Assembly (NCBI GenBank): GCA_965178125.1
Contig: OZ237756.1
Span: forward strand, 62,001-126,000
Source of the DNA: Bilabrum cf. latius
Lineage: Eukaryota
Direction: 5' to 3'
Length of the DNA: 64,000 nucleotides
In this document: positions 1-64,000 of the stretch, one piece after another
Position numbering within the stretch: the stretch's first letter is position 1
Layout of the letters: every line of letters starts with the position of its first letter
The notes under the pieces: model-generated
What the model was told of the DNA's origin: nothing
Databases searched by the model: none
What the model saw: only the letters and a program-made list of their open reading frames with translations
Program-made: the position numbers and the translations under genes

Positions 1-1759
1 ACGTGTCAAGAAAGCCGCGGCTCGGCAGCCCGCCCCTCCACTCCCAGCATACCTCCCCCCGCTACTGAAGGGCGCCGACTTCGCGCGGACTGCCATGCCA
101 GGCCTCGTCATCCCCCACGGGCAAAGGCAGGGACCCGGGTGCAAACCGCATGGCCCGTGCTACACCCAGCGATGCACCTGCACTGGCACCCGCACCCATG
201 CTCTGCTCAGCAGGCAGCAGCACCTCCTGCCCCGGCTTAGACAGTCCGTAGTAGGCAGCGTGCACGTCCTCCAACACGTCGAGAGCATCTGCTAGAGCCA
301 GCCTGGGCTCCTCTTGCACGTCCACGCTGCCCGCTCCCGCTCCCGCTCCCGGTCCTCTGGGGGCACCTCCCGCGGCGAAGGCCTGCTGCCCGGGGGCGTT
401 GTTCACGTCCCTGAACCCCCGGAAGAACACGTACCTGGCGATGACTAGGAGGTTCCGCGCCCCTCCCCACACCGCCTCCGTGTCGTCGAGGATGACCGTC
501 ATGGAATCGTCCTGGCGGTGCGAGTGCAGCCAGGCCTGGCTCTTGCTGCTGCCGTCCCCGCCCTCGTTGTCCGACCGAGATATGATGCGGTGCCCGAACA
601 GCTTCCTCTCTGGGTCGAGCAGCCGCGCGATCGCGTCCGCGTAATCCCTCGTGCCCGCCGTGTTGATGCCCAGCTCGAAGCGGCGGGAGGCGCGCCGCAG
701 GAAGGCCCGCACGCCCGGCCGCAGCTTCACGAAGTACGTGCCCCCACCGAACTGAACTATGTGCACGGGGCACCGAGGCACGCCCAGCGCCCTCGGGTCT
801 GCAGTGGCGTGCAGCAGCGTGTGGTCGATGTCCAGCACGAGCCTGAGCTTGCGGCGGGCCCTCAGCCGCTGGCTCGCCGCCTCATCGGAGGCCCGCGCCA
901 CGCGAGAGGAAAGAACAAGTTCATGGCCTCCTCTGGCCCGCAGCTTGAGCGTGCCTGCGGCCCCGCGCTGGCCCGCTCCACTTGCCCCAGCGGTTGCTGA
1001 TGCTTCTCGCGTACGTGCCGGTGCTCCTCCAGCCGCTTCCAGGGCCCGCTGCAGCGCATCAGCCGTTTCCAGCCGATCCCAGGGGTCTTTGCCAACTTCA
1101 TTCAAAGGACAACTGCGATGATGCCACCGGGATTCGTGCAGGCGCCAAATCGGGCCCCAATCGCGTGATTTGCTGGCAGCCGTTGACAGCGACCGCAGCT
1201 CGGGTTCGCTCGCATTTCTCCGAGTTGCCAAGTCCCAGGTCGTTAGCTCCTAAAGCTGAACCGCGGAATCTCTTACTAAATGAAATGTTCCCGGTGATGG
1301 TAGCTCGGAATCTACTTTACGGAGAGCCGCCATGTTCTAGCCGCACGATACGCATGCTCCCTTGAACTCACCGGGGTGAGAACACTCGGCTACCACAGCT
1401 AACCGTATGAATGCACCCATATTTTCATGCACTCCGGGCCTGTTTGATACTATGGGCACCCATGCCGGGCACTTCAATGGGACGCATGCTTTGGACTCGG
1501 GCACGAGCCAGGCAAGCAGCATGCCATCGACCGGGCTTCGAACCACAACCTTGTGTACTTCGCTATCAGGGGCGCTAGATGATGCCGCAGCCGCACTTGG
1601 GGAGGCTAGTGGCTACATCCACTTGATCTTGGCAAGGATATCGCCCCGCTTGACGACATCTTGCTGCTGTTTGATGGCCTTTACGTGGACGACTGGATCA
1701 GTGCTGCCGTGAGACACCTGCCGAAATCCGGCGCACACAACAGACACTATGTCATCCAT
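1..1759 (-). CDS. FCP1: RNA polymerase II CTD phosphatase FCP1/CTDP1-like (3' end runs off the window)
   Basis: One frame from ATG 1759 through TAGs at 1613, 1337, 1250 and 62. It has the N-terminal SPVDG and CSHP..G.C..CG motifs, the HAD DxDxT motif (LVLDIDHTLLH), FVKLRPGV and ILDDTEAVW. The frame stays open past TAG 62 to the window edge. Confidence 0.88.
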
Positions 1760-1943
1760 GCACGAAGATGTAATATATATGAAAACAAAATAGGAAACAG
1801 GATGATTCGAATGTACGGCCAGAGTGCGGTAGGAAAGCCTTAAAAAGCTCCGACGGTGTGACCGTAAATTGCACTGCACTGCCACGCCGCGACTCGCCGC
1901 AAAGCATACGCGTCCTGCACCACAACAACAATCAACGACTAGC

Positions 1944-2849
1944 ATGGCCAGCGAATCCAAATCAACTGAAACAGAAGACCGACCCGCACTCTCCGGTTTG
2001 CGCATGGCCTCCGACCGGCCAGTGGATGCCACGGAAAGTGCTTCCGCTGGCATCCCGCCGATGCAGGGCCTCCCGCCGCTGATAAGCAAGGTAGATACAT
2101 AGCTTCACATGGCCGCATTTGAGGGAAACATTGATATCCTTCGGGCCGCTCAAGCAGAAGGCCGAGACCTCGGTGCTCGTGATGGTGACAGACGCAGCTT
2201 GTTTCACTGGGCATCAAGCGGCGGTCGCGTGGCAGTTATGAGGTACCTTCTGGATGTACTTGTATCGAGCGCCAGCAAGCTGCTTGATGCGCAAGATTCT
2301 GCTGGCTGGACCCCACTCCTATCTGCCACGTCTGCGAATCGGCTGCCTGCAGTAAGGTTGTTGCTTGACCTTGGCGCCAGCCCAGATGTTTCGAATAGGA
2401 GGGGATAGCAGCCACTTCACCTTCACAAAGGCTCCGCTGCAGCGGTTCGAATGCTTCTATCGTGCACGAAAGACCCCGATGCTGGAGATGCGCTCGGAAT
2501 GACAGCGCTGCACCGCGCTGCTGTTGCTGGTTAGGTCGAAGCTGCGGCTGCGCTGCTTGATGGAGGCGTCGATGCGAATCGAAGGGACACATTCAGGCGC
2601 ACGGCCCTGCATCTCGCCTGTGAAGACGGGTAGATTGGCACGGCTGCGCTGCTGCTGGCTCGAGGAGCAGACGCTTCTGTGCCCAACGCAGATGGGAAGC
2701 GGGCCCTTGAGCTGTACCCTGCTGCTGCAGGCGGTGCCGAGGCAGTAAGAAAGGCAGCAAAGCGAGTTATGGACATGGAAAAATCGAGAGCAGGCGCAGG
2801 TGCAGGTACAGGCGCGGCCAGCGGGGGTGCCAGTGGGAGCACCTCGTGA
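1944..2849 (+). CDS. Ankyrin-repeat protein, gankyrin/PSMD10-like (~301 aa)
   Basis: Continuous ankyrin repeats (SLFHWASSGG, GWTPLLSA, G*QPLH, GMTALHRAAVAG*VE, RTALHLACEDG*IG) read through TAGs at 2100, 2406, 2532 and 2631. Ends TGA 2847-2849. Confidence 0.82.
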
Positions 2850-2989
2850 GCTCGCAATCAGAACTAGACAACAGGCGATGCGTGCCTTGATTCGAAAGTC
2901 AGATCGTCATTGAACCATCCAGAGGAAAAACAAGCCGCTTATGCAAGCTGTGGGCAGCCCCTCCATGCGTGCATGCATGCATGCGTGCG

Positions 2990-5206
2990 TCACTCGTACC
3001 CGATGTCCCAAGGCATTGGGTGTCGCTGGCTCGCACTCCCATGCAATGCACCCGCGTCATCGTCACGCACCATGGTGGGTGCTCTGGACACCATCAACCC
3101 CACTCTACCGCCTCCTCGCCGCCCTGCCACTTCCTCCTCCGTCGTGGCGATGTGCATGTGCCCCTCTGGCCCCTCGGACCTCCCGTGCCCCTCTGCACTC
3201 AACCCCACCCTCTACCTTCTCGTGCCGACACTCCCTCCCATATGTGCACCCGCGTCCTCGTCATACTCTACTCCCACCTCCTCCCACGGCATCGGGGCCC
3301 ACCCACCCCCCGCCGCTCCGGCACCCCTCCATGCACCCCTTCCCACTGGCACTCCCTCCATGTCCAGCGCATCGCTCTCGTCAAAGACAGAGCGAGGACC
3401 ACCTCCTAGTCCCGAGCCTCGCCTGGCAGCACCCATTGGGCTTCGCATGGTGCTTCTGCCTCCGCCGCTGTGGCCGCCCTCGGCCGCCCCACCATCCCCT
3501 GACTCCTGCACAATCTCCTCTGCAGCCCGACTCGACAGGCCAAGCATTCGAACCAAGCCGCGGAATCCGCCCGTGGATTGGCTCTCTGCAGCGGCTGCCC
3601 TCGCCGCCCGCAAGCCCGCCTCCACCCCCGCCGCAGTGGCTCGCGCCGCATCCACCCTCCCGCGCAGTACCTCCTGTTCTTGCGATAGCATCGCACTGCG
3701 GCGCGCCTCCAGCCTCTCCTCCGCCCTGCGCACAGCCCGCACCTCTCTTCCGTCCCCGCCGGTCAGCAGCACCCACGCGCGAGCTAGCCCAGGGTAGACG
3801 TCTCCCCGCGCCGCCGCCCGCACCTCGGCCGCTGTGCCCGCTGCCAGCGACACCCCCGCGAACCCGTGGCTCCCGCCGTCCGCCAGCGCGGCCCTGCGCC
3901 TCCAGGCGCTCCTCTCTCTCGCGCCCAGTCTGGAGGCGCGCGCCACCTCGGCACGGACCTCTGCCCTCAGCTTGAGGGTACGCATCAAGTGCCCGAAGCT
4001 GTCGATGCGGCCGACTCCCCTTGTCCGCTGCTCATGGTACCACCCGGCCCCCGCCCCTGTCCTTCCGCCCATGCCCCTGCCCCTGCCCCTGCTGGCCTCC
4101 TTGAGCTCTCTCGCAGCGGCCATGGCCTGGGCCAGCACCTCGCGACGGACTCCTTCCTCCTCCTCTTGGTCCCCTTTCACCTCATGCTCTTCGTCCTCAT
4201 TCTTATAATCGTCGGCACCGTGCTGCCTCTGCCTCTGCCTTCGTCTCTGCTTTTTTCTCCTCCGCTTGCCAGCCTGCCGCACCGCGATCAGCTCCCTGAT
4301 CCGATCCTTGAGACCCTCCAGAGGACTTCCTGCATCCGCACCATCGTGCGCTTCACCCTCCCTATCCCGCTCCAGTTCCTCCACGGCCCTCTCTAGCACG
4401 GCCATCACCTCGTCCTCGCTCACAGTCGCGTCCTCCTCCGCCATGATCGACCCCAGCACGCGCAGGTGCTCAGACCTGCTGGCACCGGCCCCCCTCCACC
4501 CCCCGTTCTCCACCTAGTACCCCCACACGGCCAGCAGTGCCAGCACCAGCATTGCGCACCCCGCCAGTTCCCACCCCCGCGGCATGGGCTTGCTTCGCCC
4601 TCGGAAAGCAGAGCCGGGCCCGGCGCGGGCCCCTTCCCCTCCCCCCCCCATGGCTGCCGCAGCCCACTCGGCACCGACCGCGCCCAACACCCCACCTGCT
4701 GCCGACAGGGCCAGCTAGTGCGGGAAGTGAGTGGCCCCGTACACTCTCGTGACAACTATCAGCACCACAATCAGTATCGCACTGGCGGTGACATCGGCCC
4801 GCTGCGACAGGCGGGCTGCCTCGGCTGCCATCACAACCGCAAGCCAAAGCTCCACGCATGGCAGCCCGTTCGGGGACACGCGACCTCTTGGATGCAGTGC
4901 AGCATCGTATGCTCGTGGAACCCTAGCTCGGAACACGGCAGCTATCAAGATGCAAACGAGCAAGTTAATGCTGACTGTGGCAAGCAGTCGCCAGGAGCGG
5001 AACCAAAGAGTCGCTATTGCTGCCAGGAGCCAAACTATGATCGACACATCGTGAACGACAAATTTTGACACCATCGACCCCATCAGAGCTCTGACACGCG
5101 TAGGAAGGCATGAGAACAACCAATACCGGGACTACCGCAGGCATTTAATCTCGTCCGCCACCCAGGGAGGCGTCCCTTGCACTAGCTCGATTCTCGCTGG
5201 GTCCAT
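2990..5206 (-). CDS. PAP2/glucose-6-phosphatase-like multi-pass membrane protein with long charged C-terminal tail (~738 aa)
   Basis: ATG 5206, TAGs at 5132, 4715, 4514 and 3212, TGA at 2990. Several hydrophobic helices and PAP2 motif 3 TRVYGATHFPH*LAL, compared with G6Pase SRIYLAAHFPHQV. Confidence 0.7.
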
Positions 5207-5473
5207 CTAGTCTGAACGGCTATACGGCTACTATGAATGCTGTCTTCGACTGCGCGTATTCGATCTACCACCTGGTGGCATTTTGCAGGCCCAAATTTCT
5301 GCCGACAACGCTCGATTATTAATATTCCGGATTACACTTGTCACATCATTAAATCACTCGAGCAACTGCAACAGCATTTATCTTCTCTCATACGGAGTCT
5401 TAGCACCGAAAGTGTCGACATTTTCAGGGGTCCTTTGTTTTAATACTACAGTAAAAGCGAAATTAGCACTGAT

Positions 5474-7489
5474 ATGTTCGCAAAACCTTCTGCAGCTTCG
5501 GTGGTGCACCTGCTGCAGGCGGCCAACACCTCTGGCCGGTGCGGCTAGTACAGGCGTTCTCATGACATCTTGCTCGTAGGAGAAGGGGATTTTTCTTTTG
5601 CTGCTGCATTAGCAGGGACTTTGAGTGGAAAACAGCTTGTTGCTACCTCTTTTGATGACGAGGCTACGGTTCGATTGAAGTACTCGGGCAGTGTGCACCA
5701 TTGTCTAGATACAGCAAGAGCAGCCAAGGCCCAGGTGCATTTCGGCGTAGACGCAACTCGACTTCATACCGATCAACGCATCACAGGGGATACTGAGCTC
5801 GATCCCGCAGGAGGGATATTCGATCGCGTAATCTTCAACTTCCCTCACGCCGGCGGTGCCACTCGCGCCGCCGTGGCGCGTAACCGAGCAGTGGTAGCGG
5901 GGTTTCTTGCCTCTGCTGCTGATGTGGTGCGGCCATGGCCCCACGGTGAGATCCACGTGACGATGCGGCTCAGTTCATTCTACGAGTCGTGGGGTGTGGG
6001 CGACATGGCACCCCCCCATGGCCATGGCACCGGTGACACTGCTGCCAGTGGGGCGGGAACCCTCGATAGAAAGGAAGGAGCCAGGAAAAAGCAAGCGGGG
6101 CAGAAGCGAAGGCACATGGAGGCGACTGATCCAGGCCGCGCTCCTGATGGTGCTGTGCTTGCCGTTGCACTAGCAGGCGGGGCTGAAGCAGACCTCATGG
6201 TGGAGCCCGTGGAGGAGGAGGAGGAGGAGGTGACCGGAGGGGCTAGACAGAGGGACCGACGGGGTCCCGGTGGCAAAGGCGACAGGAAAGGGTAGGCGAA
6301 GGGCAGAGACAGCAAGGGTAAGGACAAGGGGGACAGCAGGCAGAGGAAGGCCGAGGGCAGAGACAGCAAGGGTAAGGACAAGGGGGACAGCAGGCAGAGG
6401 AAAGCCGAGGGCAGGAGGAGACTAGCCATGCGGAGGGCGGGGCACGGGGCGGGCAAGGCCGAGAAGGAGAAAGAAGAGCCCTTCCAGTATGTGGCCCCAC
6501 CTCCCAGCCAGCGGGGGCCCATGCTGCGATTCGTGGGTCGCGTGCCCTTCGATGCATCGGCGTACCCGGGGTACAACCCCGTCAGGACGCACCCCGCCGC
6601 GAGGCAGGCCCCCGAGGCGGGAGAAGCTGTCACGCTCGTATTCACGGTGGTACCAGCAATGCACGATGGGGATGAGAGTAATGGAGCGGAAGAGGAAGGG
6701 GAAGAGGAAGAGGAGGATCAAGATGGGGAGGAGGGCAGTGCCGCCTCAGCGGCTCTCGCTCTTGCTGCAGCGGAAGAGGACAGGCTTGCTCGCAGGGCCG
6801 CCAAGAAGGCGAGGAAAGAGGCGAGAAGGAGAGAGAGGAGGGAAAGGGAAGGGGCGACCGTGGGCGAGGGGACAGAGGCTAGAGCTAGGGGGGGGCATTC
6901 TGGACAGACCGAAGGGAGTAGAATTGGCCAGAAACGAAGAAGGGATGCTGTTGAAACTGGCAATTCTGCTGGGAGTGGTGCTTCCGACGGCGGGGAGAAG
7001 GAATTCGAGAGGGGCGATGTGGATGGGGAGGGGGCTGGTGCGGCTCTCATAGCCATGGCAGCGCTGGGCCGGCGCAGGAGGGGACTCGCCGTCGGTAGCA
7101 CGGGCACGGGCGAGGCGCAGGGCGGTTCCCACTACATGACCGATGAAACCGATGGTCATGCTTGGCATAGATCGAGCCGGAAGCGGCGCAGAAAATCGAT
7201 GGGTGGTGGCAGCGGCGACTCGGACGAGGACGAGGCATCGGGTCCAGCCGATGGTGCAGGCATCGCTGGGGGCAATGGTTACGGGGGCAGTGCGATGATC
7301 GAGAAAGCGGAGAGGCGGTGGGCCGAGATGGCGATCGAGAGGGATAACAAAAATCAAAAGCAAAAAGGAAGGGAGGGGAATCAGCGAGAGCGTGCTGCTG
7401 ACGGCAAGGACTCGGTCCATGGTCAGGGCCAGGGCGCTGGTGGCGGAAAGGGCCGGAAGGGGCGAAAGCGGCGAACTGGGCAGAGGTGA
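5474..7489 (+). CDS. DUF2431 / Bmt5-like rRNA (uridine-N3) methyltransferase-domain protein with basic/acidic tail (~671 aa)
   Basis: ILLVGEGDFSFA, LVATSFD, FGVDATRL, FDRVIFNFPH and a downstream FDASAYPGYNPVRT. Joined through TAGs at 5546 and 6293; ends TGA. Confidence 0.8.
6302..6409 (+). repeat. 54-bp tandem duplication (GRDSKGKDKGDSRQRKAE x2) inside the DUF2431 gene
   Basis: Two adjacent 54-nt copies differing at one synonymous site. Confidence 0.9.
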
Positions 7490-7812
7490 ATATCTTCCAG
7501 TTTATCTTGGTTCGGCTCTAGCATTGCGGAGAGGCACGGTGATGCGGTGTCCCCGCGTGCCAGACGCTTGACTCCTACCTTTCTATTTGCGCGCGGCACG
7601 CGCTCAATTCACCGCAGCACACGAATCTCGACTACCGTCTACTATGGGTGCAATTGGCTTATGATGCATGCATTCACAACAGCACCAAGCAAGCAAGAGA
7701 GTCTTGTCAACATGACACCACGGGCCGAAAATGGATGACTCGGAGTCATTGAGCGGCCCAAGTCTCGGGCATTCTATGCACAGAGCGATTAGCGAAGGAT
7801 CAGCGGTTTCTG

Positions 7813-10800
7813 ATGACCACTCCGTCTGGCAAAGATAACTCGGTTAGTTTGCTTCGACGCCTGTTGGCGGCCTTCAAATTCGACAAGAACAAGGCCGATT
7901 AGGTGCGTGGAACCCGGCCGCCAAGACTCGCTCCAAGAGTGCCAGAATGGCAAGATCCGTTCGCGTTGATTGCTTGGTTGCAGCGTGTTTATTCACAACT
8001 AGTTCGGTGTGAGAGAAATAGGGCATTGTGGAGGGATTCTGATGGCGTATCTCGTTCGGCAGAATCGGCAGCTTCACTACCTTGCCTAATTCCCTTGATG
8101 TCTGCATTGCACCGGTCTTCCGCAGCGGAAACTCTTCGTGCTAGGCGTGATATTTAGATCCAACCGTAGTCATGCTCTGGGCAGGCTGTCATACTCGCGG
8201 GACGGCGCAGTCAATCCTCCGACGTGCGATGCTTCGGGATCATGTTGCCGCTTCTTACCCTCAGCTTGATTGCCAGCCCGTTTTTGTTGGGCGTGATGAA
8301 CTCATCAATAACCCCGTCACTCTTTCATTTCGGCGCGTACGACTCTTGGGGCCTTCACACCGTTGACCGGACAACCCTGGGCGATCCGCGTGCACAAATG
8401 GTCGACCTGGAACCGCGGGAATATGAGGGGTTTCGTGCCGCTTTCATTGTGTATCCTATGCTAGCCATCATGTGGATATGGTTAACCTTGATTTAGGTTC
8501 GTGTTCAGGTTGTGTCAGGCACAACTCGTGCTCTAGTGGCTGCCACGCGAACTCCAACCACAGCGACTGCCTAGCAGCTAGAGCGAGCTGCAATCGCAGG
8601 ACAGTCAAGTCCCGCGCGCGCTCTGTTGGAAACCCGTATTGCTACACGAGACGACAAAGTCAGCCCAGGCGTTCCTTACGAGCGGCCATTGATCATGCCA
8701 GTGTTCGGCACCGTTCCCGTGCTCCTCTACCGCCCGCGGAGAAGGGCCGCGGGTCAAACCGGGGACAGTAATGCCAGTGGCAGCATCGGATCATCGATTC
8801 TGGTCCCCACAGACCAGCGTCGGGCGGATCCTGGCGGGCGCAGCGTGATGGAGATGGGCAGCACATCCAGCGAGATGCACTCGGGGGAGGTGCACGGAGG
8901 GCAGGCGGGGGCTGGACCAGCCGGGCTGGGCGGGGGCTCCAATGTAGCCGGGAGATAGTCACAGCATGGTATGCATCAAATTCACGTGCTCAGGGCCCAT
9001 GCAGTGCGGCAGGGTACAGGCCCTTCCGTGGACCATGCGAGCAAGCCGGCGTCAATCGACCGCCAGACCCACGCCACGGACACAGCCCAGTTCCCCTCTC
9101 GAGCCAGCATGGGGGAAGACACCTCCAGCTCGGACCAGCAGAAGGGACTGGCGACGGACGGCGAACCAGTGTTGGACCCACCCCCGGGGCTTGAGCCCGT
9201 GGTGGCGGTAGTGGGCGCGGTGGCACCTGCCAGCGGCCCGGCCTCTGCCCCTGCCCCTGCTTCGACTGTGCCGGTGGGGCAGATGGCCCGACCTGAGGCA
9301 AGCAAGGAAACCCGCATGGATCTAGCTCGGGAGCGCATGACTCTTCGTGACCTGAGTCCATTCGCCATGCGCTTCACCAGCAAAGGTGACCTGCTGCGGT
9401 CCTCCCAGCGAGCCACGGACTGGTGCCCGAGGGAGACCTGCGGGGACTGCGGCTTTGAAAACTTGCTCTTTCGACCTATGCAACTCTGCGGGGTCACACT
9501 GTAGGCAGCGGCATGGGTCACTAACGTCGTGTTTGTGGCAGGCTGGCTCTCGGCAGTGGTTGTCGATCTGACGGAGGGGTACCCTGGCGCAGGGCTGTGG
9601 CTGCTCGCTTACATGGCCCCGACTGCCGCAGTTCCAGCTTCAATCACCGACCTGGGGATGGTTGTGGGCTTGTACCTCGTGTTGAGTGCGCTCTATCTTA
9701 TGTGGGGTATTGCATTTGGCCTGATGCGCGGCATGGGGGACGAGCTGCTCACGGCTGACGGTGCCAACATCGTCAGCATTGGAGCGGCCCTGCTGATCGA
9801 AACCACGCCGTACTTTACAGTGGCCTACATTTTCATCGTGGCCCGGTTCTACACCGGGCTTGTAGTGCGGAACCGAGTTGAGCAGTGCATGCACGCCGTG
9901 GCACAAATCGAGGCGGACCATGAGACGGCCATGCGTGCAGCCCGCGTGCAGATGCCACCCTTTGCTCTTAGGCTGCTGCACGGGGATACCACTGGAGTTG
10001 AGCTGGAGGACACTACGGCAGTCCTCGTGCTAAGGATTCACGTGAGGATCAGGCACCGCGAACGGAAGTCCAGAGACAGGAGCGTAGATACGGACAGGGT
10101 CGGTGCTGCTGACGCTCCCCTGAGCGTCAAGTCATCGAGGGGCAGGCACCAGGGCGAGCAGCGCACGCGGGCTCGAGGCAGGGCGAGGGGTCGTAGGCAC
10201 AAGAAGAAGAAGGCGTCCAGGAGTGGGCGGCGGGGTTACGACTCTGCCGTATCTTCTGGCTTCTCCACGGATGGATCTGAAGCAGGCTCGCAGCAGTACT
10301 GGAGAAAACCGTAGACTGCAGCCCGTGATGATATCTCGGGTTTGGACGAATCAGGTATGCAGTCTATAGGCGCATTGATCACCAGTGCAGCAGGAATGAC
10401 AACAACGAGCAAGACCTCCAGACTGGGTCAGAGCAGTCGGGAGGGGGGAGGGGATGGCAGAGAGAAGCAGTCTGCAGCGAATGATGCAGCCGCTGAGGAC
10501 CAGTCGCGAGAGAGCAAACTGGCCCGGGTGGTGCTGCTGTCAGTGGCACTCATCGAGCGGGTGCTCAGCTCGGGGCAGTTCAATCACAGGGCCACCTGCG
10601 TGTCCGTCGTGGGCCAGGACGTGGTGGTGGCGGTGCACGGGGCGGGCTCCAAGGTGTTCGGACTAAACTATGACGACGACCAGGAAGAAACAGTCCCAGG
10701 GCCCCCGGCACCAGGCACGCAGGATCCGCATGGTGACGCACTATCCGGTAGGACGGGGGGTGGGGTGAGGTCCAGGGGCAGTTAGTACCAGGTAAGAGGG

Positions 10801-24068: not shown

Positions 24069-24226
24069 ACTGAGAATGCAATGCCTAGAGAATGCAAGAA
24101 TGTACATCTACCATCTGGATGCATGATCATTTGTGAGCTTCACCTCTACCCATTGGGTCGGATCCAGGGGGATCTGGATTCCGGATGAGTCTATCAGTAG
24201 GCATACCTAGCCTATCTGATTCCAGA

Positions 24227-28393: not shown

Positions 28394-28583
28394 CACTGAG
28401 GCGAATTTAATCCATACTTTATCCTAAACGAGTCGTCCGCTGTGGCGCGTGCTCCACTCTCCGCGTCAGACAGGTGGTTGCAACCGCCCACTGGCACTGG
28501 ATTCAAGTTGGCCGGCGGTTTAGTGGCATCCGGATGGGATAATGCTGCGTATGTTGGGGATCAAACTCAGCACGTGTCTCGCC

Positions 28584-38751: not shown

Positions 38752-38855
38752 GATTGTGAGCGCGATCGAGCAGCCGCCATACAGTGCCAGTTGCGTGCAC
38801 TTCGGCGACCGACCGGAATTCGTCTTTGTATCGATCTCATGCCACTGCAGCAGGC

Positions 38856-40395: not shown

Positions 40396-40426
<31 letters not shown>

Positions 40427-44595: not shown

Positions 44596-45237
44596 TCAGT
44601 AGGTGCCCTCCTTCGCAAATAGGTTGCCGGGGTTCGTCATCGCCTTGAACTCAAGCGAGTTGCCGCTCGGGTCCTTAAAGAACATTGTGTACTGCTCTCC
44701 TGCCTATCCTTTGAATCGTAAATGTGGCTCTATGATGAAATCGATGCCAGCATCTTGAAGACGACCGGCAAGCGTCTTGAACTCGGGGACGGACAGGCAG
44801 ACGCCGAAATGAGGGACTGGCACATCATCGGAATCCACGGGGTTGTAGAAGTCCCTTGCGCGATAATCTGATCCAACGCAATGTGCCACGAGCTGGTGAC
44901 CGAACAACGAATAATCTTGCCACGAAGTGGAGCTGCGACCCTCCATGAGCTGCATTGTACCGCCGTAGAACGCTTTTGCCTCGTCGAGATCGTGGACAGG
45001 AATGGCCAAGTGAAATGGCCGGACTTCTTCAGTAGTGTCGCTGCTCATTGACCTAACCTAGCCGCGTGCTGCGCATGCTGAGACTGAAGATCCAGCAAGA
45101 ATACCAGCAAAGGCGGAACCAACTGCCACCGAGCTTGCTGTGCTACGAAGCAAGCACGGGGCTGACCGAATAGCATGATACGGCTGGATTACACGCTTTG
45201 AGGCGTTCAGCAACCGTGCGATAGCTCGCACGCGCAT
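44596..45237 (-). CDS. VOC/glyoxalase-bleomycin-resistance family protein with probable mitochondrial presequence (~213 aa)
   Basis: [59 protein letters not shown]. TAGs at 45058 and 44704; ends TGA 44596. Confidence 0.88.
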
Positions 45238-45335
45238 GGTAGACAAGTATAAACCGAAGCCGATCCACAAGCGATTTGCACTCGTCATCATCCACACCAC
45301 TGCGGTCCAAAAAATAAGCTCTTCCTTTTTTAATC

Positions 45336-48299: not shown

Positions 48300-48472
48300 C
48301 GATACGAAAGATGCGGCAGCGACGGAGCAAGCGACGTGTTCTGTATTTTCGTCGGCCGAGACAAAAACGCACATTACAATTTTCAGATCTGGGTGTTCAG
48401 TGAAATTGGGCCTACGTTCAAAATTGATTGATCATATTCCTACCACTTTCGTTAAAATACGTTATACGTGGT

Positions 48473-54400: not shown

Positions 54401-56716
54401 TCTGACAAGCAGCACAAGGCCAATAGCGGTACGAAGGGCTTAAATTCGATGTCGAAACCGCAGGACGCATGGATAGCAGACCTGCACGCAGCCTCGGATT
54501 CTCTCAGGGTGACGGAGACGCGCCTCGGCGAAAAGGTGGTACACAGCTTAAGCGGCGGGAGTGGCTCGAGCCCCTCGGGCGATGCAGTGGCAGTGGCCCG
54601 CGTTAGACATGACGGTTTCAGCGGCTCCCTGCTGGCTGGTCTACCGGTGGAGGAGGCCGGTCTGGTGCGAGCCTTGCACGGGCAGATCTTGCGATTGGGA
54701 CGGGAGCTCCAGTCTAGAGACAGGCAGCTGGAGGCGGTGCACGGCAGGATCGAACAAGTGCGGCGATCTGTGACAGAGCTGGCCGAGCAGAGGGCACATC
54801 GAGCGCCTGCATCTGCATTTGCGCACGAAGGAGCGCGCGATGGTTCTGCTCCACCTGGCCAGCGCGACCGGAGCGCTCCCCTTGAAGCCGAGAAGCGAGA
54901 CGGTCGTCGCATGTCTCAACGTGCTATTAATTCGGAATCACTCTCACCGTTTGTAGTAGAGGTCAGTGAAATCAGCGCAGGGAACAGCAGCGCACTGGAT
55001 GGACAGGACACGGCCGAGCACGATGTCGCTTTCCCAAGCAGAGGGATGGTTCTTGACGGCCTCATGGAGGCCGAGGACAACGACGCGGACACAGGGCCTT
55101 CTGTGCTATATGCCAGGCAGCACAGTGCCGTGCACCGTCTGTTCGATGAGAGGGCAGAGTTAGAGGAGACCCATGCGCGGGAGCTGCGGGAAAGGGATCG
55201 CCGGATTGCCTCTCTGATGAGGGAGCGGCTAGGCCTTGAGATCGCGGTGCTGCGGCTGAGGACGCAGATGGACAGGGCCGGCATGTACCAGCATAACCTG
55301 CCAAGGGTACCCAAGAGGGCTCTTGTCGATGATAAGGAGCAGCCACACGTAGAAATCTCGGCGCTGACAGGTGATGCCTCGCAGTCGAAGGCGAATGGAT
55401 CCAAGGACAGGAACTAGTCTCGAGTACACCTTGGAGTGCTGCGCCCTAGTGACGTGCCGCGGCTCAGCTGGCCTGTGGCCCAGTCTGCGCTGCGAGAGAT
55501 GCAGGCCGGCCTGCCAGCAATCGAGGATGGTGCACGAACAGGATCGGTCGAGCGCGGCAGTGCCAAGGCTGGTGGCACATTGCCTGCAGCGGTATAGTCA
55601 GAAGCAGTGCTACAGAACGGCACACGGCTAGTGGACGATAGCGATTCAGATTCGGTTCAGCAGGCGCAGGCTGAGCTTCGGGCCTCTGTGCAGCTCGGTG
55701 TGCCCGAGGAACCGCCCAGCCAGGCTTCCGTCGAGGTTGAGTTTGGCGCCGCACGTGATGCCAGAGGGGATCCTGAAGATGAAGATCCTGAGACTTCGTT
55801 CGATTTCGAGACAGACGTGGGCAGGGGAGCTGCCCTAAACGGATTCAATGGGGCTGTCACGCTTGGTAGTCCTCATGCGCCGGGTGGACGCAAGATACGA
55901 GACTCTCAGCTAGGGCCACATGCGCAAGAACACGATCTGTGGCTCGATAGTGCAGATGCCAGGAGTCCTCGTGATGCGCTGAGAGGGCTAGTCCAGCCAG
56001 GCCGGGCGGGTCACGCCACCGGCGGCAGCAGCAGGAACACCAACAAGAGGAGGGGTATGCCGGTGCCGGTCAGCACGTTTGCAGAGACCCCGAGGAGAGC
56101 GGCGGTGCGAGTTGCCCTGGGGTCTGCCGGTCCGCACGAGACCCACTCTAGGCGGTTCTGGGAGGAGTCGCCTTCGGGGCACAGAGAGGATGCAGTAGCT
56201 CTGGGATCACCGTTCATGGGTGCTGGTGTGCATGTACCATCGCCAAGACGCACCTAGGCAAGTCAAGGCAGCGATGGAGTTGGCTAGGGAGATGGAGCCT
56301 CCTCCCCTGGTCCAAGGTTAGATAGCCAGAGCACAAGAGAAGGCGCCGAGACTGTGAGCTCTATCCTGGCGCGATTGAAGAGCAAGACTAGGCGGGGGTA
56401 GTCTGGCGCTGGGCCAGTGGGGATCGGCCGTGAATCTTCATCCGCAGACGGATCACCGGCTTGGAGAGGCGAGAGTGCGAGTGGCAGTGCCGATGGCAAG
56501 GAGGCCGTGCAGAGGGAAAGAGAAGTGCGCTTCGTGACACCCCCATAGACCCCATAGGTGCCCCCTAGGGGTGACGCTCACAGCAAGGCACACGAGCAGG
56601 GCTCCATGGCAACCAGCAGAGCAGGAACCCCAAGGACAGGGGGCAAGATGGGGTCACTGTACTCGCAAGGGGCCATCACACCAGGTGGACAGGGGTGGCT
56701 GGGCATCGGCATTTGA
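48473..56716 (+). CDS. Large coiled-coil protein with internal 14-aa repeat array (~2747 aa)
   Basis: Single frame from ATG 48473 with about 31 TAGs and no TAA/TGA until TGA 56714. Heptad-rich E/Q/A/R/L segment at ~50400-54200. Confidence 0.75.
49469..49540 (+). repeat. 36-bp tandem duplication (EPGPHARQVTHR x2)
   Basis: Two exact adjacent copies. Confidence 0.9.
49778..49909 (+). repeat. 66-bp imperfect tandem duplication (STDADGEAT.TDGTRR.APMA. x2)
   Basis: Two adjacent near-identical copies. Confidence 0.85.
51401..53055 (+). repeat. Coding minisatellite: ~39 copies of a 42-bp unit encoding VQG[Q/K]LQEAEAERAA
   Basis: GTGCAGGGC(C/A)AGCTGCAGGAGGCCGAGGCTGAGCGAGCGGCT repeated head to tail with few variants. 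Confidence 0.97.
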
Positions 56717-59700
56717 TGCAACCCTGGCTGACACCAACCACCATCCAAATATATTGCGACTGATAATTGGCCCATTTAGACTCATCACATGCTATGCACA
56801 GTCTCATATTGGACCACGATTAAACGGCGCCGCGATTCAATCCACCGATGGCAACGGAACCAACGCATCCGCGAGGTCAATCAATCCAAACATAACTCGG
56901 CCAAGCCAAAAACCAACTCGTGCTTTCCGGCTTGTTGCAGCCATGCAGCTATCTACATGCTGTGTGTCCGGGTGGCTTCTCATGTTGATACTTCTTCTGG
57001 CGGGCGGCACGGTCGAGGCTAGAGTTGTGAGCCGCGCTGGTGGCCCGGGACAACCTTCGGGCCACGAGCTCTTTTCATGTGTTGTCGATGTAGTGTCTGC
57101 CCTTTGCAAAGACCAGTTGCATCGAGCTGCGCGTGTCAGTGATGAGCATGCCAACACCCGAACACAAGATGTGACAAGGCGACTGCAACAGCCTGAGACA
57201 ATAAGTAGCCCAGAACTGGATCTGTTTGGGCTGCCTCTCAGACTTCTCAGTCCGCCGTACAGCAAGGATCCGTGTTATGACTCAGAGCAAGGCGCGTACC
57301 GTCGCTGGGATCAGATCAGCTCAGGCCTTCTGACGGCAGCCGAAGCAGACCGGCATGCATAGCCTGGTTTTGAATCAGTTTAGGCCGATCCTTTGTACGG
57401 CAGCACAAGCGCGATTCGGCAGTACTGGATGGACCGTGTGCTGCCGCCGCCTCCCTCGGATGACGGCCTGGGCGGGGGCATGCAGATGGGCTCAGGTCTC
57501 CCCGTGGCGCGACCGACGTGGGTGGACCTGCGGCGGGCTGCGCTGGCAGCGGAATGCATCGGGGGCGCGGGTGACGCAGCTGCAGCAAGTGCATGCGCAG
57601 TGCACCACGCCACGAGATACATGCCCGGGATGGGCGGCGCATCGTTGAGTCAAGAGTAGGCTGGGTGGAGAGGGGGCGGTGGGCATGACGAGGCCAAGCC
57701 ACGAGAGGCAGTGGACCCGCTGTTCACATCAGAGAGGAGCCCAGGGGCGGGCTGTGCCCCCATGGAAGAGCATGGAGTGGACGCAGACGGGCCGCTGGAG
57801 GGTCCTGCGGATGGCTGGGTGTTTGCGGGGGCTTAGAGCAAGAGCCAGAGCGAGGCAGGGTCAGGGGCAGGGTCAGGCTCAGGCTCAGGCTCAGGCTCAG
57901 GGTCAGGGTCAGGGTCAGGGTCAAGCAGCAGGTGCCTGGGTGCTTCCTCGGTGACTAGAGACATGGGGCACATGCTGGACGTGGCGGCAGATGCCCGCAT
58001 TCGGCACGTGGCTCTGCAATGGAATGCTTCCGTATTCCTGGCACGGGGCGACATTGTGAATCTGGCTCAGCGGGCTCGCCTGCTGCCGCCAGCTGGCGTG
58101 GTGCTGGAGGTGGGCAGCTTCCACGGCATGAGCGCGATGACGATGCTCATTGCACTGCGGCGCAGGGGCAACTGGGCAGCACGGGTCCTATCGGTGGACC
58201 TGTGGATGGACCCGGATGATGCGCAGAGCGCAGCCGCATCGGATTCCAGCCAGCAGTGGTACGCTTTCTAGCCCGCATGGCACAGGGCCCGGCACGTGGA
58301 TGCATACACCGGGATGGTGGCTTCTTCAGGTGCGGGTCACCAGGCGTACATGCTGAGGATGCACTCGGTGCAGGCGGCCTCGTTTGTTCCCCGGGGAACA
58401 GTGGATCTGCTGTTCATCGACGGTGACCACTCCAAGGCGGGGGCCTACGCAGACATGGCTGCGTGGATGCCCACGGTGGACAGGAGGACGGTTGTGGCCG
58501 GCGGGGCGGCGGATGGTGATGGTGGGAGGGACGGCCCGAAGCCCAACGAGCTGCTCATGGGGGGCCGGGTGCTGCTGCACGATGGCTCGCCCAGTCTGCA
58601 CCTTCGCTGTGGGCGTGGGCGGGAGAGGCCATGTGCTGGACACGTGAGGGAGAAGATGGCAATTTGGAAGCTATCTGGCACCGGAGAGTAGGAGTTCGGT
58701 GTGATTGCTGCCGCATCGCAGCTGTGCTCGTTGCACCAGCAGTGCTCAGTGATCACCACGCAGAATACGTAGGTGTACGGGCATCGAGCTGTTCGGTTTT
58801 CATCAGCGGCAGGTGATGCAGCGATGCGGTCCATTGGATGGAACTCGACCCAGCTGGCCTTGGATCTTGCTGGGGCTGGCGAGCCTCGCGCGTTCTGGCC
58901 GTTGTCGCCTGTGGCAAGTGCGGCCGGCCAGCTCACAGAACCTTCGCGACAGCTTACATTACGCATACCTCTCAACAGCAGCGCGATGTCAGAGATTGTG
59001 TCGCCGGCATGGACCATGCGAGCCTGTGTGGAGGACCTTGAAGCATCCGGAGGCGGCGCAACTCCTAGCAGCAAGAACGGCTTGCCCCCTGGCACATCCG
59101 GTATCATCCGCTACCGCACCTCGCATCAGGCGCTTGCAGGTCCGTACAGGAGTATCGCTGCAGCGCTCGCCATGGTGTCCGTCGCTGCATCGACAGAGCG
59201 GGGAGCGGAGGACGGCCCCAGTGTCAGCAGGGACAGCGCACAGTCGATCATGCTGGAAGGGTGCAACTGCCCGTTGACCTCATCGGAGAACGTGGTGGCG
59301 TCTGTGGTTGCTGCTGTTGGCGCTGAGTCTGTCGCAGATGGATCCACCGGGGCAGCTGGCGCAGGGTCAGACCCGAGGCACCTTGTGAATGAAGTATTGA
59401 GCCAGCTGATGGGCTTCAAGGGGTCATCTCCAGCGGACTGGTCCGAAGCGGTGCAAGCCATGGGGCAAATCGCGTCCAGAGTAGCGCGGCGAGCGGCGGA
59501 CATGTGCTGCAGGATGCCCATCGAGTACGACAGAGCGGCACGAGCATACGTTGGAACAGAGGACTCGGCTGAAACCACTATATTGGATGAGAATCGGCAC
59601 CCAGTACACAAGTGGATCACTTTGACGTCAGGTGTGCCGCGGATGAAAGCCATGTATCTGGCAAGATGCAGTATCGCAAATTCCCGCGAACCACCCTCAG

Positions 59701-60028
59701 GGTCAGGGAATGGTATACATGAATACGATCATAGTATACCACTGGCTGTACCAAGCCAATCAAATTTAGCTTCAAATGTAGTAGAGACTGCGGACGGTAA
59801 GGGTATGTCACGTCGGTTGAAACCGGGGCAGTCATCATTGTGGGGCTCTCGGTCGGCTCTGAAGGCTGTCTTGCAGTCCCAGCGGTTCGCGCTCCAGGAT
59901 CACGACGAGCCGATCATGTGGAGCTTGCGGGACAGCCCTCTGACTGCGTGGGCAGAGGCATGCGGTGTGCATGGGAGCGGCCCTGAGAGCATGAGTGAGG
60001 CTGGAGGCAGTGCAATGTGGGGTGCATG
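56704..60028 (+). repeat. Tandem segmental duplication, copy 1 (period ~3.97 kb)
   Basis: Near-identical to 60671-64000, starting at CATCGGCATTTGATGCA. Confidence 0.95.
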
Positions 60029-60143
60029 TGCTGCTTTGAGAGGGCGGCAGATTGAAGGTGCTGGCAAGCAGCCTATGGTGGATCGGGTTGCGTCACACCC
60101 TTCTCTGCCAGCTTACGTGATCCCTGAACGTTGGCGACAGTGA
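56943..60143 (+). CDS. Signal-peptide-bearing class I SAM-dependent methyltransferase (Methyltransf_24-like), copy 1 (~1066 aa)
   Basis: Signal MQLSTCCVSGWLLMLILLLAGGTVEA. Motifs VVLEVGSFHGMS, VLSVDLW, VDLLFIDGDHS, GGRVLLHD. Six in-frame TAGs; ends TGA. Confidence 0.8.
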
Positions 60144-60670: not shown

Positions 60671-63600
60671 CATCGGCATTTGATGCAGCCCTGGCTGACA
60701 CCAACCACCATCCAAACATGTTGCGACTGATAATCGGCCCATTTAGCCTCATCATAAATGCTGCAGAGACATAACACACACAATCTACATGCGTTGGCGC
60801 CGCGCCGAATCCGCATCCACCGATGGCAACGGAACCAACGCACACGCGAGGTCAATCAATCCAAACATAACTCGGCCAAGCCAAAAACCAACTCGTGCTT
60901 TCCGGCTTGTTGCAGCTATGCAGCTATCTACATGCTGCGTGTCCGGGTGGCTTCTCATGTTGATACTCCTTCTGGCGGGCGGCACGGTCGAGGCTAGAGT
61001 TGTGAGCCGCGCTGGTGGCCCGGGACAACCTTCGGGCCACGAGCTCTTTTCATGTGTTGTTGATGTAGTGTCTGCCCTTTGCAAAGACCAGTTGCATCGA
61101 GCTGCGCGTGTCAGTGAGCATGCCAACACCCTAGCACAAGATGTGACAAGGCGACTGCAACAGCCTGAGACAATAAGTAGCCCAGAACTGGATCTGTTTG
61201 GGCTGCCTCTCAGACTTCTTAGTCCGCCGTACAGCAAGGATCCGTGTTATGACTCAGCGCAAGGCGCGTACCGTCGCTGGGATCAGATCAGCTCAGGCCT
61301 TCTGACGGCAGCCGCGGCAGACCGGCATGCATAGCCTGGTTTTGAATCAGTTTAGGCCGATCCTTTGTACGGCAGCACAAGCGCGATTCGGCAGTACTGG
61401 ATGGACCGTGTGCTGCCGCCGCCTCCCTCGGATGACGGCCTGGGCGGGGGCATGCAGATGGGCTCAGGTCTCCCCGTGGCGCGACCCACGTGGGTGGACC
61501 TGCGGCGGGCTGCGCTGGCAGCGGAATGCATTGGGGGCGCGGGTGACGCAGCTGCAGCAAGTGCATGCGCAGTGCACCACGCCACGAGATACATGCCCGG
61601 GATGGGCGGCGCATCGTTGAGTCAAGAGTAGGCTGGGTGGAGAGGGGGCGGTGGGCATGACGAGGCCAAGCCACGAGAGGCAGTGGACCCGCTGTTCACA
61701 TCAGAGAGGAGCCCAGGGGCGGGCTGTGCCCCCATGGAAGAGCATGGAGTGGACGCAGACGGGCCACTGGAGGGTCCTGCGGATGGCTGGGTGTTTGCGG
61801 GGGCTTAGAGCAAGAGCCAGAGCCAGAGCCAGAGCGAGGCAGGGTCAGGGGCAGGGTCAGGGTCAGGGTCAGGGTCAGGGTCAGGGTCAGCGGCAGGGTC
61901 AAGCAGCAGGTGCCTGGGTGCTTCCTCGGTGACTAGAGACATGGGGCTCATGCTGGACGTGGCGGCAGATGCCCGCATTCGGCGCGTGGCCCTTCACCCC
62001 AATGCATCGATATACATCCTACGCGGCGACATTGTGAATCTGGCTCAGCGGGCTCGCCTGCTGCCGCCAGCTGGCGTGGTGCTGGAGGTGGGCAGCTTCC
62101 ACGGCATGAGCGCGATGACGATGCTCATTGCACTGCGACGTAGGGGCAACTGGGCAGCACGGGTCCTATCGGTGGACCTGTGGATGGACCCGGATGATGC
62201 GCAGAGCGCAGCCGCATCGGATTCCAGCCAGCAGTGGTACGCTTTCTAGCCCGCATGGCACAGGGCCCGGCACGTGGATGCATACACCGGCATGGTGGCT
62301 TCTTCAGGTGCGGGTCACCAGGCGTACATGCTGAGGATGCACTCGGTGCAGGCGGCCTCGTTTGTTCCCCGGGGAACAGTGGATCTGCTGTTCATCGACG
62401 GTGACCACTCCAAGGCGGGGGCCTACGCAGACATGGCTGCGTGGATGCCCACGGTGGACAGAAGGACGGTTGTGGCCGGCGGGGCGGCGGATGGTGATGG
62501 TGGGAGGGACGACCCGAAGCCCAACGAGCTGCTCATGGGGGGCCGGGTGCTGCTGCACGATGGCTCGCCCAGTCTGCATCTTCGCTGTGGGCGTGGGCGG
62601 GAGAGGCCATGTGCTGGACACGTGAGGGAGCAAATGGAGGCAGGGCAGTTGTCTGGCACCGGAGAGTAGGAGTTCGGTGTGATTGCTGCCGCATCGCAGC
62701 TGTGCTCGTTGCACCAGCAGTGCTCAGTGATCACCACGCAGAATACGTAGGTGTACGGGCATCGAGCTATTCGGTTCTCATCAGCGGCAGGTGATGCAGC
62801 GATGCGGTCCATTGGATGGAACTCGACCCAGCTAGCCTTGGATCTTGCTGGGGCTGGCGAGCCTCGCACGTTCTGGCCGTTGTCGCCTGTGGCAAGTGCG
62901 GCCGGCCAGCTCACAGAACCTTCGCGACAGCTTACCTTGCAATTTCCACTGGAAAGCAGCGCGATGTCAGAGATCGTGTCACCGGCATGGACCATGCGAG
63001 CCTGTGTGGAGGACCTTGATGCATCCGGAGGCGGCGCAACTCCTAGCAGCAAGAACGGCTTGCCCCCTGGCACATCCGGTATCATCCGCTACCGCACCTC
63101 GCATCAGGCGCTTGCAGGTCCGTACAGGAGTATCGCTGCAGCGCTCGCCATGGTGTCCGTCGCTGCATCGACAGAGCGGGGAGCGGAGGACGGCCCCAGT
63201 GTCAGCAGGGACAGCGCACAGTCGATCATGCTGGAAGGGTGCAACTGCCCGTTGACCTCATCGGAGAACGTGATGGCGTCTGTGGTTGCTGCTGCTGGCG
63301 CTGAGTCTGTCGCAGATGGATCCACCGGGGCAGCTGGCGCAGGGTCAGACCCGAGGCACCTTGTGAATGAAGTATTGAGGCAGCTGATGGGCTTCAAGGG
63401 GTCATATCCCGCGGACTGGTCCGAAGCGGTGCAAGCCATGGGGCAAATCGCGTCCAGAGTAGCGGGGCGAGCGGCGGACATGTGCTGCAGGATGCCCATC
63501 GAGTACGACAGAGCAGCTAGCGCACCTGTCGGGCCGGTGGGTGCAGCTGAGGCCAATGTGTTGGACATGGACGGGCAGCCTATCCATGGGTGGCACAGCC

Positions 63601-64000
63601 TAGCATCCACTGTGCCACTGAGTAAGACGACAGGAATTCCTAGGTGCAACAAGATTGAGATAGCTGAGAGCGCTGTTGTGGACATCGCTGCCAGTGCAGG
63701 GAGGCCCAACCAAGGCATGCCACTGGCTCTGCCCAGCGAGTCGCAAGGTGCACTGAAGACTGAATCTGCGAGTGATGTGGGTCATGCGCGCACGACGACT
63801 GTACAGTCTGTGTGGGGCTCTCGGTCGGCTCTGAAGGGTGTCTTGCAGTCCCAGCGGTTCGCGCTTCAGGATCACGACGAGCCGATCATGTGGAGCTTGC
63901 GGGACAGCCCTCTAACCGCGTGGGCAGAGGCATGCGGTGTGCATGGGAGCGGCCCTGAGAGCATAAGTGAGGCTGGAGACAGTGCAATGTTGGGCGCATG
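60671..64000 (+). repeat. Tandem segmental duplication, copy 2 (truncated by the window)
   Basis: Near-identical to 56704-60028 except for localized divergent patches. Confidence 0.95.
60918..64000 (+). CDS. SAM-dependent methyltransferase, copy 2 (3' end beyond the window)
   Basis: Same frame structure and the same six TAG positions as copy 1; open to the window edge. Confidence 0.8.

Follow-up and report, generated by a model that had tools for sequence, protein, structure and literature searches.

UAG is a sense codon in the 64,000-nucleotide stretch of DNA analyzed here (positions 62,001 to 126,000 of contig OZ237756.1, assembly GCA_965178125.1, filed under Bilabrum cf. latius), which we call the window. 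UAG codons are present in mRNA and are translated, and UAA and UGA codons are not translated. The explanation that we prefer, and consider probable, is that the window belongs to the nucleus of a GC-rich, intron-poor microbial eukaryote that decodes UAG as glutamine and terminates translation mostly at UGA and rarely at UAA, and that relatives known from environmental contigs use the same code.

Long reading frames of the window contain in-frame TAG codons

When TAG is read through, positions 7753-22545 on the plus strand form a single frame of 4,930 codons with 35 TAG, no TAA and no TGA. The first ATG, at 7813, lies upstream of all 35 TAG codons, and our recount agrees with a preliminary description of this DNA, made from its letters alone, that had reported a 14.7-kb open reading frame from 7813 with 35 TAG and neither TAA nor TGA. 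The longest frame of the window under the standard code is 763 codons. In 20 mononucleotide shuffles with TAG treated as sense, the longest frame had a mean length of 463 codons and a maximum of 694, and the trinucleotide frequencies of the window give a probability of 1e-35 for 4,930 codons without TAA or TGA. Reading TAG as sense places 22,669 codons within frames of at least 500 codons, compared with 6,109 when TAA is read as sense and 12,902 when TGA is. The window is GC rich, as described previously (61% overall; 0.58 to 0.67 per 4-kb bin).

Eighteen frames, each a gene or part of a gene, comprise 20,053 codons and contain 147 in-frame TAG and 1 TAA. TAG is present in 17 of the 18, the sole exception being the last exon of the triosephosphate isomerase (TPI) gene, and 144 of the 147 lie downstream of the first ATG. 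The preliminary description had put these numbers at about 140 TAG in 16 of 17 genes, which the recount raises slightly; its claim that TAG is sense in nuclear, intron-bearing genes is upheld by the 147 in-frame codons, the long frames and the TAG codons inside conserved domains (see below). Because freedom from TAA and TGA was what delimited the 18 frames, their internal zero counts hold by construction, and the weight of the argument therefore rests on frame length and on the stop load of the other two frames. Read in the +1 and +2 frames, the same stretches contain 309 and 431 TGA and 61 and 74 TAA, respectively.

In its following base and its spread along frames, TAG behaves as an ordinary sense codon. 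The base after TAG is G, C, A or T at frequencies of 0.40, 0.24, 0.21 and 0.15, against 0.42, 0.24, 0.21 and 0.13 after any codon. Every frame decile contains TAG (9 to 28 per decile, 11 in the last). The codon occurs about 7 times per 1,000 codons, and the 147 occurrences compare with 247 expected from position-wise base frequencies. TAG density rises in frames with low G+C content at third codon positions (GC3), peaking in the ankyrin frame at 14.4 per 1,000 (GC3, 0.53); the TPI exon frame (23421-24068), with no TAG, has the highest GC3 (0.81). TAG looks like a nonpreferred codon that is avoided in highly expressed genes.

TAG codons lie inside conserved domains of ordinary eukaryotic genes

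By Pfam, the gene set of the window is one of ordinary eukaryotic housekeeping genes, listed here with coordinates, strand and number of in-frame TAG codons.

2..2104, minus strand: FCP1-like phosphatase (Pfam NIF, E 3.9e-22); 4 TAG; runs off the window
1806..2849, plus strand: ankyrin-repeat protein, aligning along its length with PSMD10/gankyrin chains; 5 TAG; ends in TGA
2990..5353, minus strand: membrane protein frame, no family found; 7 TAG; ends in TGA
5444..7489, plus strand: BMT5-like rRNA methyltransferase with a low-complexity tail (Pfam BMT5-like, E 1.6e-35); 2 TAG; ends in TGA
7753..22545, plus strand: giant protein with a split kinase domain (first ATG at 7813); 35 TAG; ends in TGA
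22925..24068, plus strand: TPI (Pfam TIM, E 6.8e-78); exons to 22981, 23194-23262 and 23427-24068; GT..AG introns 22982-23193 and 23263-23426; no TAG; GC3 0.81; ends in TGA
24227..28465, minus strand: uncharacterized frame of 1,412 codons; 13 TAG; ends in TGA
28584..30878, minus strand: Paf1 homologue (Pfam Paf1, E 1.5e-14); intron 30347-30445 (99 bases); 6 TAG
31608..35999, plus strand: CLU-like gene, highly divergent, with a CLU domain and a weak eIF3_p135 match; 12 TAG; ends in TAA
36000..36935, plus strand: open frame behind that TAA, which may be part of the CLU-like gene; 1 TAG; ends in TGA
37587..38749, minus strand: V-ATPase subunit E-like gene (weak Pfam match); intron 38416-38527 (112 bases), its joint found in three runs
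38760..44360, plus strand: Ulp1/SENP-type protease with long low-complexity regions (Peptidase_C48, E 1.4e-11); 8 TAG; ends in TGA
44596..45333, minus strand: VOC/glyoxalase-fold protein; 2 TAG, one of them (44706) inside the domain; ends in TGA
46374..48431, minus strand: mitochondrial carrier (SLC25) with inserts (Mito_carr, E 1.4e-57); 1 TAG; ends in TGA
48428..56716, plus strand: long coiled-coil protein; 31 TAG; ends in TGA
56538..60143, plus strand: Methyltransf_24 protein, first tandem paralogue; 7 TAG; ends in TGA
60699..63998, plus strand: Methyltransf_24 protein, second paralogue; 8 TAG; runs off the window

At least 10 TAG codons fall inside Pfam envelopes. Four are in the ankyrin repeats (2100, 2406, 2532 and 2631), and one in the kinase lies between the beta-3 (ATP-binding) lysine and the HRD/DFG motifs. 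The TAG at 44706 in the VOC domain is upstream of the conserved C-terminal strand, and the CLU domain, the Paf1 domain and both Methyltransf_24 domains contain one each. Since these codons are within domains and not just in linkers, translation must pass them. The domains that the preliminary description had named were recovered by Pfam in the case of FCP1, ankyrin, kinase, VOC and SLC25; V-ATPase E was the exception, its match of 21.5 bits lying below the cut-off of 24.2.

Spliced contigs retain the TAG codons

Contigs of sequencing runs were compared with the window over 22600-42500 (19.9 kb). Those of four runs from three studies, one a DNA run and three RNA-like, match the window at TAGs. 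The TPI intron joints were found in X6 and X8 (22981 to 23194) and in X5, X6 and X8 (23262 to 23427), and further joints connect 30346 to 30446 in Paf1 and 38415 to 38528 in the V-ATPase E-like gene, where the plus strand reads CT..AC and the genes are on the minus strand. TPI exons joined at the contig junctions give an intact TPI from start to TGA. The introns are of the GT..AG type and 99 to 212 bases long. Spliced joints occur in X5, X6 and X8, which come from two studies, and the DNA-like run X1 shows none. This evidence consists of contigs, and X5, X6 and X8 are taken as RNA from a tool's guess and their spliced joints, not from the run records.

The spliced Paf1 contigs of X5, X6 and X8 retain TAG at 30701, 30761 and 30812. 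Of the 41 TAG sites in the compared region, 37 are covered by pieces of X5, none of which shows another letter there, and one 5,790-base X5 contig spans the entire frame at 24227..28465 without any difference. Two letter differences were listed in the 19.9 kb (33716 and 35807, both in X6), neither at a TAG. Because spliced contigs keep the TAG codons and no letter differs there, the codons are not assembly errors, are not edited and are not spliced out. The preliminary description had noted that removal of TAG by splicing or editing, or reads showing CAG in its place, would undo its claim; the spliced contigs keep TAG, and no contig reads CAG.

These data bear directly on an explanation in which the TAG codons are an artefact or a sign of decay, whether through misassembly, editing of UAG in RNA, removal of TAG within introns or a field of pseudogenes. 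Only the a priori rarity of code changes favors it, and against it stand the agreement at TAGs of four runs from three studies, the spliced contigs, the count of 147 in-frame TAG versus no TGA within frames, and TAG codons in conserved domains of 19 independent environmental contigs (see below). We give this explanation next to no probability.

The region 22600-32500 is present nearly whole (share, 0.99) in runs X1 to X4, which carry one organism label, and partly under three other labels from three further studies. A near-identical stretch across four organism labels and four studies may reflect a symbiont, a parasite, prey, a contaminant or one organism under several names. Since the stretch occurs under four labels, the label of a single run may not name its source.

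Environmental relatives of the CLU-like gene share the TAG-only pattern

A word-index search with the CLU-like protein gave no match. An exhaustive HMMER search with its last 1,199 residues found three proteins at E<=0.001 among 1.84 billion representatives. These proteins (P0130 to P0132) come from metagenomes, are 157 to 482 residues long and have long exact blocks in common with the window protein; they are probably gene calls cut at TAG. An alignment-based scan of metagenome contigs then yielded 19 loci (L001 to L019) with a GC content of 0.52 to 0.60. In 18 of the 19, the matching frame is 516 to 1,989 codons long and contains 3 to 22 TAG and no TAA or TGA; the remaining locus, L016, has a frame of 379 codons with one TAG. 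Some loci are duplicates (L006, L007 and L013 are the same, L008 pairs with L009 and L017 with L018, and L015 equals L019 over their overlap). About 13 distinct relatives remain after their removal, 23 to 81% identical to one another and 16 to 30% identical to the window protein.

In-frame TAG codons are also found in neighboring genes on the relatives' contigs, encoding a P450, a penicillin-amidase-family protein (E 1e-127), a PLD-like protein, an AAT-family protein, a cNMP-binding protein and a Pan3 pseudokinase. The amidase, AAT-family, PLD-like and P450 genes sit at L007 1-7531 and L010 3526-5388; the penicillin-amidase and AAT families are better known from bacteria and fungi. The genes flanking the 19 loci showed no synteny with the window.

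The relatives use the same TAG-only pattern, with frames that end in TGA or TAA. The search adds to the preliminary description that environmental relatives share the code and that, judging from their sequences, the codon most likely specifies glutamine.

TAG alone is reassigned, and TAA and TGA are stops

Fifteen gene ends in the window are TGA and one is TAA (that of the CLU-like gene, 35997-35999); two frames are open at the window edges. The statement of the preliminary description that all 15 visible ends are TGA therefore holds for TGA as the usual terminator (15 of 16) and had overlooked one TAA end. The sequence turns AT richer after every closing TGA. With GC3 at about 0.65, codons ending in AG outnumber those ending in AA by about 3 to 1 (CAG:CAA, 699:220; GAG:GAA, 886:306; AAG:AAA, 386:150), so that, had TAA the same meaning as TAG, the frames should contain about 50 in-frame TAA. 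One was seen, which bears out the earlier view that TAG, and not TAA, has been reassigned. Among 14 gene ends tallied in the relatives, 9 are TGA and 5 are TAA; since TAA closes genes there, it is a working stop in that group.

Behind the sole in-frame TAA of the window stands TTG rather than ATG, and another 311 codons (36000-36935) remain open; their composition resembles that of coding sequence, and they include one TAG and match TPR_12 weakly (E 0.0045). The TAA is kept in contigs of runs X5 and X8. Its status could be that of a genuine stop, of a nonsense mutation acquired recently or of a site that is read through. No significant match to the frame behind it or to the last 500 residues of the CLU-like protein was found in the relatives, and a global alignment of CLU-like C termini with those of the relatives was uninformative on the TAA, as was the exhaustive protein search.

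This TAA, which looks as if it lay inside a gene, is one of two observations that would suit a code in which both UAG and UAA specify glutamine (NCBI table 6), with TAA sense but rare through GC richness; the other is that TGA alone closes 15 of the 16 closed frames. Such a code is used by many ciliates, hexamitid diplomonads and some green algae. We regard it as highly improbable here, given the shortfall of TAA in the window (1 versus about 50) and the use of TAA at 5 of 14 gene ends in the relatives. In the relatives, moreover, CAA is nearly as common as CAG (215 versus 284 sites), yet frames of up to 1,989 codons contain 22 TAG and no TAA. The table 6 codes have glutamine and a TGA stop in common with the code proposed here and differ from it in TAA, which is not sense here and ends genes of the relatives.

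A decoding in which UAG is ambiguous, being sense internally and a terminator near mRNA 3' ends, is quite improbable as well. All three stop codons are ambiguous in Condylostoma and karyorelict ciliates, and because our frames were read through every TAG, a terminal TAG just before a TGA would escape notice; TAG codons do lie 22 and 10 codons before the end of the CLU-like frame and 55 and 52 codons before that of the coiled-coil frame. Against this, TAG codons are evenly spread up to the last decile, their +4 context is that of sense codons, the AT-richer sequence begins behind the closing TGA, as in untranslated regions, and no gene requires a TAG end.

Glutamine faces TAG in the relatives

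To assign a residue to UAG, we used an alignment of 15 rows (the window and 14 loci) in which each TAG was entered as X; L006, L013, L009 and L018 were left out as duplicates and L016 for its short frame. In a first alignment of 19 rows, with four duplicates in, glutamine was enriched 3.3-fold opposite TAG (115 columns), the highest of 20 residues. BLOSUM62 mean scores over 142 TAG sites put glutamine first (Q, 31.0), followed by S (-16.5), E (-24.0), R (-27.9) and K (-31.5), with L (-177.6), Y (-210.3) and W (-361.5) at the low end. Applied to the 61 sense codons, this procedure named 57 correctly, the four misses being threonine called as serine and isoleucine called as valine. These controls had their own residue in the alignment, and 11 were therefore repeated with the codon masked as X and scored per column. 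In this masked test, TAG gave 18.9 for Q versus -1.4 for S and -13.0 for E, and the true glutamine codon CAA did not achieve as much.

A second test considered only conserved flanks (4 of 6 flanking residues in agreement, each column-codon pair counted once). There, TAG faces glutamine codons in 15 of 62 pairs (CAG in 8, CAA in 7; binomial P of 4e-9 against a glutamine share of 0.036); the other residues facing TAG include A (7), S (6), D (5), R (5), E (3), K (2) and L (2), with Y and W at 0. The control glutamine codons face glutamine in 12 of 72 (CAA) and 12 of 101 (CAG) pairs. In the otherwise invariant motif FDVEVH[Q]LPSG, the bracketed glutamine is present in 12 rows, including the window (33120), and is replaced by TAG in L007 and L010; in a second motif column, seven rows have glutamine and L001, L017 and L019 have TAG.

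Pfam scores with each residue substituted at TAG weakly agree with glutamine in the relatives: summed over three families, they are Q 708.7, E 706.8, K 706.1, S 705.5, R 704.9 and L 696.7. Over seven families of the window and relatives together, the sums are Q 972.0, S 969.8, E 968.6, K 968.1 and L 953.1. Leucine, a residue that UAG has acquired elsewhere, was rejected: it lies 19 bits below glutamine in these sums, scores -177.6 versus +31.0 in the family alignment and, at conserved flanks, faces TAG in 2 of 62 pairs versus 53 of 109 for the leucine codon TTG. From these sequence comparisons, UAG very probably encodes glutamine in the relatives.

The window's own sites were scored in four families. 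In Ank, the bit scores are Y 90.9, N 90.9, S 90.4, H 88.2, Q 87.3 and E 86.9, then D 86.5, L 85.5, W 85.5 and K 85.2. Pkinase gives K 114.8, E 114.1, Q 114.0, S 113.6, Y 113.0, L 112.3 and W 111.7; CLU gives K 32.5, Q 32.3, E 31.7, S 30.9, L 29.8 and W 29.5; and Glyoxalase ranges from Q at 29.7 down to W at 28.5. Whole-protein Ank_2 scores, which vary from 103 to 147 bits depending on domain count, were left unused. The window sites weakly suggest a polar residue, with leucine and tryptophan about 7 to 8 bits worse and Q, S, K and E not separated; what they exclude is leucine, tryptophan and residues like these. A crude heptad-register test in coiled coils covered 7 TAG sites and had no power, and a naive-Bayes classifier on neighboring residues was dropped, having named 16 of 59 control codons.

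Evidence against the glutamine reading

Several results weigh against the reading proposed here or against parts of it. The masked controls named 6 of 11 codons correctly, with serine as a generic attractor. The evidence for glutamine is limited to one gene family, and for the window's own organism the assignment would draw mainly on relatives that are 16 to 30% identical to it. Window-only Pfam sums place serine first (S 264.3, Q 263.3, K 262.0 and E 261.8, less than 3 bits apart), and so do the 10 TAG sites that could be aligned in the CLU-like gene of the window (S 1.2, A 0.4, R 0.1, K -1.9, T -2.9 and Q -3.2). Opposite the three TAG codons of a relative's amidase, homologues in the Protein Data Bank (PDB) have G, E/T and M/N, not glutamine; these homologues are too distant to judge the sites. 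The reading leaves the in-frame TAA at 35997, and the open frame that continues past it, without an explanation. No tRNA gene and no eRF1 gene was found in the window or in L001 to L019. Finally, the run tool marks X5, one of the runs with spliced contigs, as "probably DNA."

Part of this evidence would fit an explanation in which UAG is sense but specifies another polar residue (serine, lysine, glutamate or arginine) in the window's organism, the relatives differing or misleading. Besides the window's own CLU-like and Pfam sites, where serine is top in both, TAG codons within acidic runs of Paf1 and Ulp1 speak for it, and codes with UAG as glutamate and UAG as leucine exist elsewhere, according to parts of two reports (PMC5304391 and PMC10553269). 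On the other side, relatives with the same peculiar gene and the same TAG-only pattern give glutamine under calibrated controls, and of the 93 columns in which TAG occurs in a relative, the window has glutamine in 8 (P of 0.016 against a glutamine share of 0.035). Serine is a known false attractor of the scoring. Clustering of glutamate around TAG is 0.88, versus 1.27 around GAA and 1.66 around GAG; neighbor enrichment mostly follows local AT content, so that this is a weak point, and against glutamate only. On balance, we judge another polar residue unlikely, and glutamine in the window's organism is favored by the analysis with fair, though lesser, confidence than in the relatives.

A candidate mechanism and comparison with known codes

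The expected machinery can be drawn from known codes of this kind, which parts of two papers attribute to a tRNA with a CUA anticodon together with an altered eRF1 (PMC5304391 and PMC11687900). By that logic, UAG would be read by a tRNA with anticodon CUA, in the simplest case a tRNA-Gln(CUG) with one base changed. Such an anticodon could not read UAA, owing to a C:A mismatch, and a UUA anticodon would draw UAA along. The eRF1 of this organism would be predicted to have lost or weakened recognition of UAG.

The proposed code, with UAG as glutamine and UAA and UGA as stops, would probably be of the Iotanema type (the letters of NCBI table 15). Whereas fornicates live anaerobically and have reduced mitochondria, the genes in the window include those for a mitochondrial carrier and a CLU protein. 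As far as the cited part of the report goes, the fornicate Iotanema spirale reads UAG as glutamine and uses UAA and UGA as stops, with UAA dominant (Panek et al. 2017, PMC5304391). UAG alone has thus changed to glutamine and UAA is a stop, as here, and the logic of the CUA anticodon applies unchanged. Unlike in Iotanema, TGA closes 15 of 16 frames of the window at 61% GC, and the likeness shows no relatedness.

Among phyllopharyngean ciliates, UAG is glutamine in both Hartmannula sinica and Trochilia petrani and leucine in three TARA metagenome-assembled genomes, at a GC content of 27 to 54% and with UAA the most used and UGA the least used stop, in the portion of the work drawn on here (McGowan et al. 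2024, PMC11687900). As in those ciliates, the change here affects UAG only, is seen in most genes and was read from conserved positions; it differs in the GC content of 52 to 61% and the dominance of TGA. Nor do the long, low-complexity, intron-bearing genes on a 64-kb stretch look ciliate-like. The rhizarian exLh, from the same report as Iotanema, reads UAG as leucine, with stops counted as 56 UAA and 15 UGA in the passages cited (PMC5304391). It resembles the window in its UAG-only change and in the scarcity of UAG in highly expressed genes (none in the window's TPI) and differs in its residue, leucine being disfavored here. The codon table is also that of "genetic code 15" (TAG as glutamine) in crAss-like and Lak phages, which, in the cited portion of the source, switch code during infection (PMC9523058); here, the code is that of a nuclear genome with spliceosomal introns.

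Nuclear codes in which UAG and UAA differ are very few and, going by parts of three papers, are known from a single fornicate, a single rhizarian and a few ciliates (PMC5304391, PMC11687900 and PMC10553269). In the full-text literature searched, which lacks most subscription journals, UAG-only reassignment was not found described for any GC-rich eukaryote; the genome data are recent, and a publication elsewhere may exist.

Other features of the window

In the giant protein, a low-complexity insert of about 950 residues separates the kinase N-lobe (near 2959-3106) from the C-lobe (near 4075), and the protein also has two membrane-helix blocks and a weak cyclase-like stretch (Guanylate_cyc, E 0.01). 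The coiled-coil gene contains, at 51399-53062, 39.6 copies of a 42-base unit (14 residues, rich in Q, E and A) that is 97% uniform; the array is free of TAG, all 31 of the gene's TAG codons lying outside it. Both Methyltransf_24 paralogues look secreted and have seven TAG codons at identical places in the two copies. These common places indicate that the duplication was later than the code change. PDB searches with the membrane protein (2990..5353) and with the 1,412-residue protein gave no match, nor did a metagenome scan with the Methyltransf_24 protein, and no Rfam family was found in the window.

Lineage and implications

The mitochondrial carrier, the CLU protein and the GT..AG introns point to the nucleus of an aerobic eukaryote. 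A search with TPI found best identities of 60 to 62% and no near relative. In a TPI tree, the window sequence falls outside the plant, fungal and animal groups, near ciliate sequences and a cluster with a Blastocystis member; the tree was a quick one, with weak support (SH-aLRT values of 61 to 81) and long branches, and such long-branch joins call for caution. A search with the FCP1-like protein gave nine matches, the best from a green alga at 38%, and did not help placement.

The preliminary description had raised the possibility of an independent origin. We consider the chances even that UAG became glutamine, in an event separate from those in Iotanema and the ciliates, in an undescribed, species-rich, GC-rich lineage comprising the window's organism and at least 12 distinct environmental relatives. 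On this reading, the change would have taken place in genomes where UAG should have been a common stop and where UGA is now the main terminator, and its origin could not lie in the disappearance of a codon under AT pressure. UGA is the leakiest of the three stop codons.

Standard gene callers break genes of this kind at each TAG. With calls broken in this way and database fragments of 157 to 482 residues, the lineage is probably much misannotated in public metagenomes. If the reading is true, it would add to the known codes a clade at 52 to 61% GC with TGA as its main stop and would bear on the routes by which stop codons are reassigned. Codon capture requires a codon that compositional bias has made rare, and TAG is not expected to be rare in a GC-rich genome.

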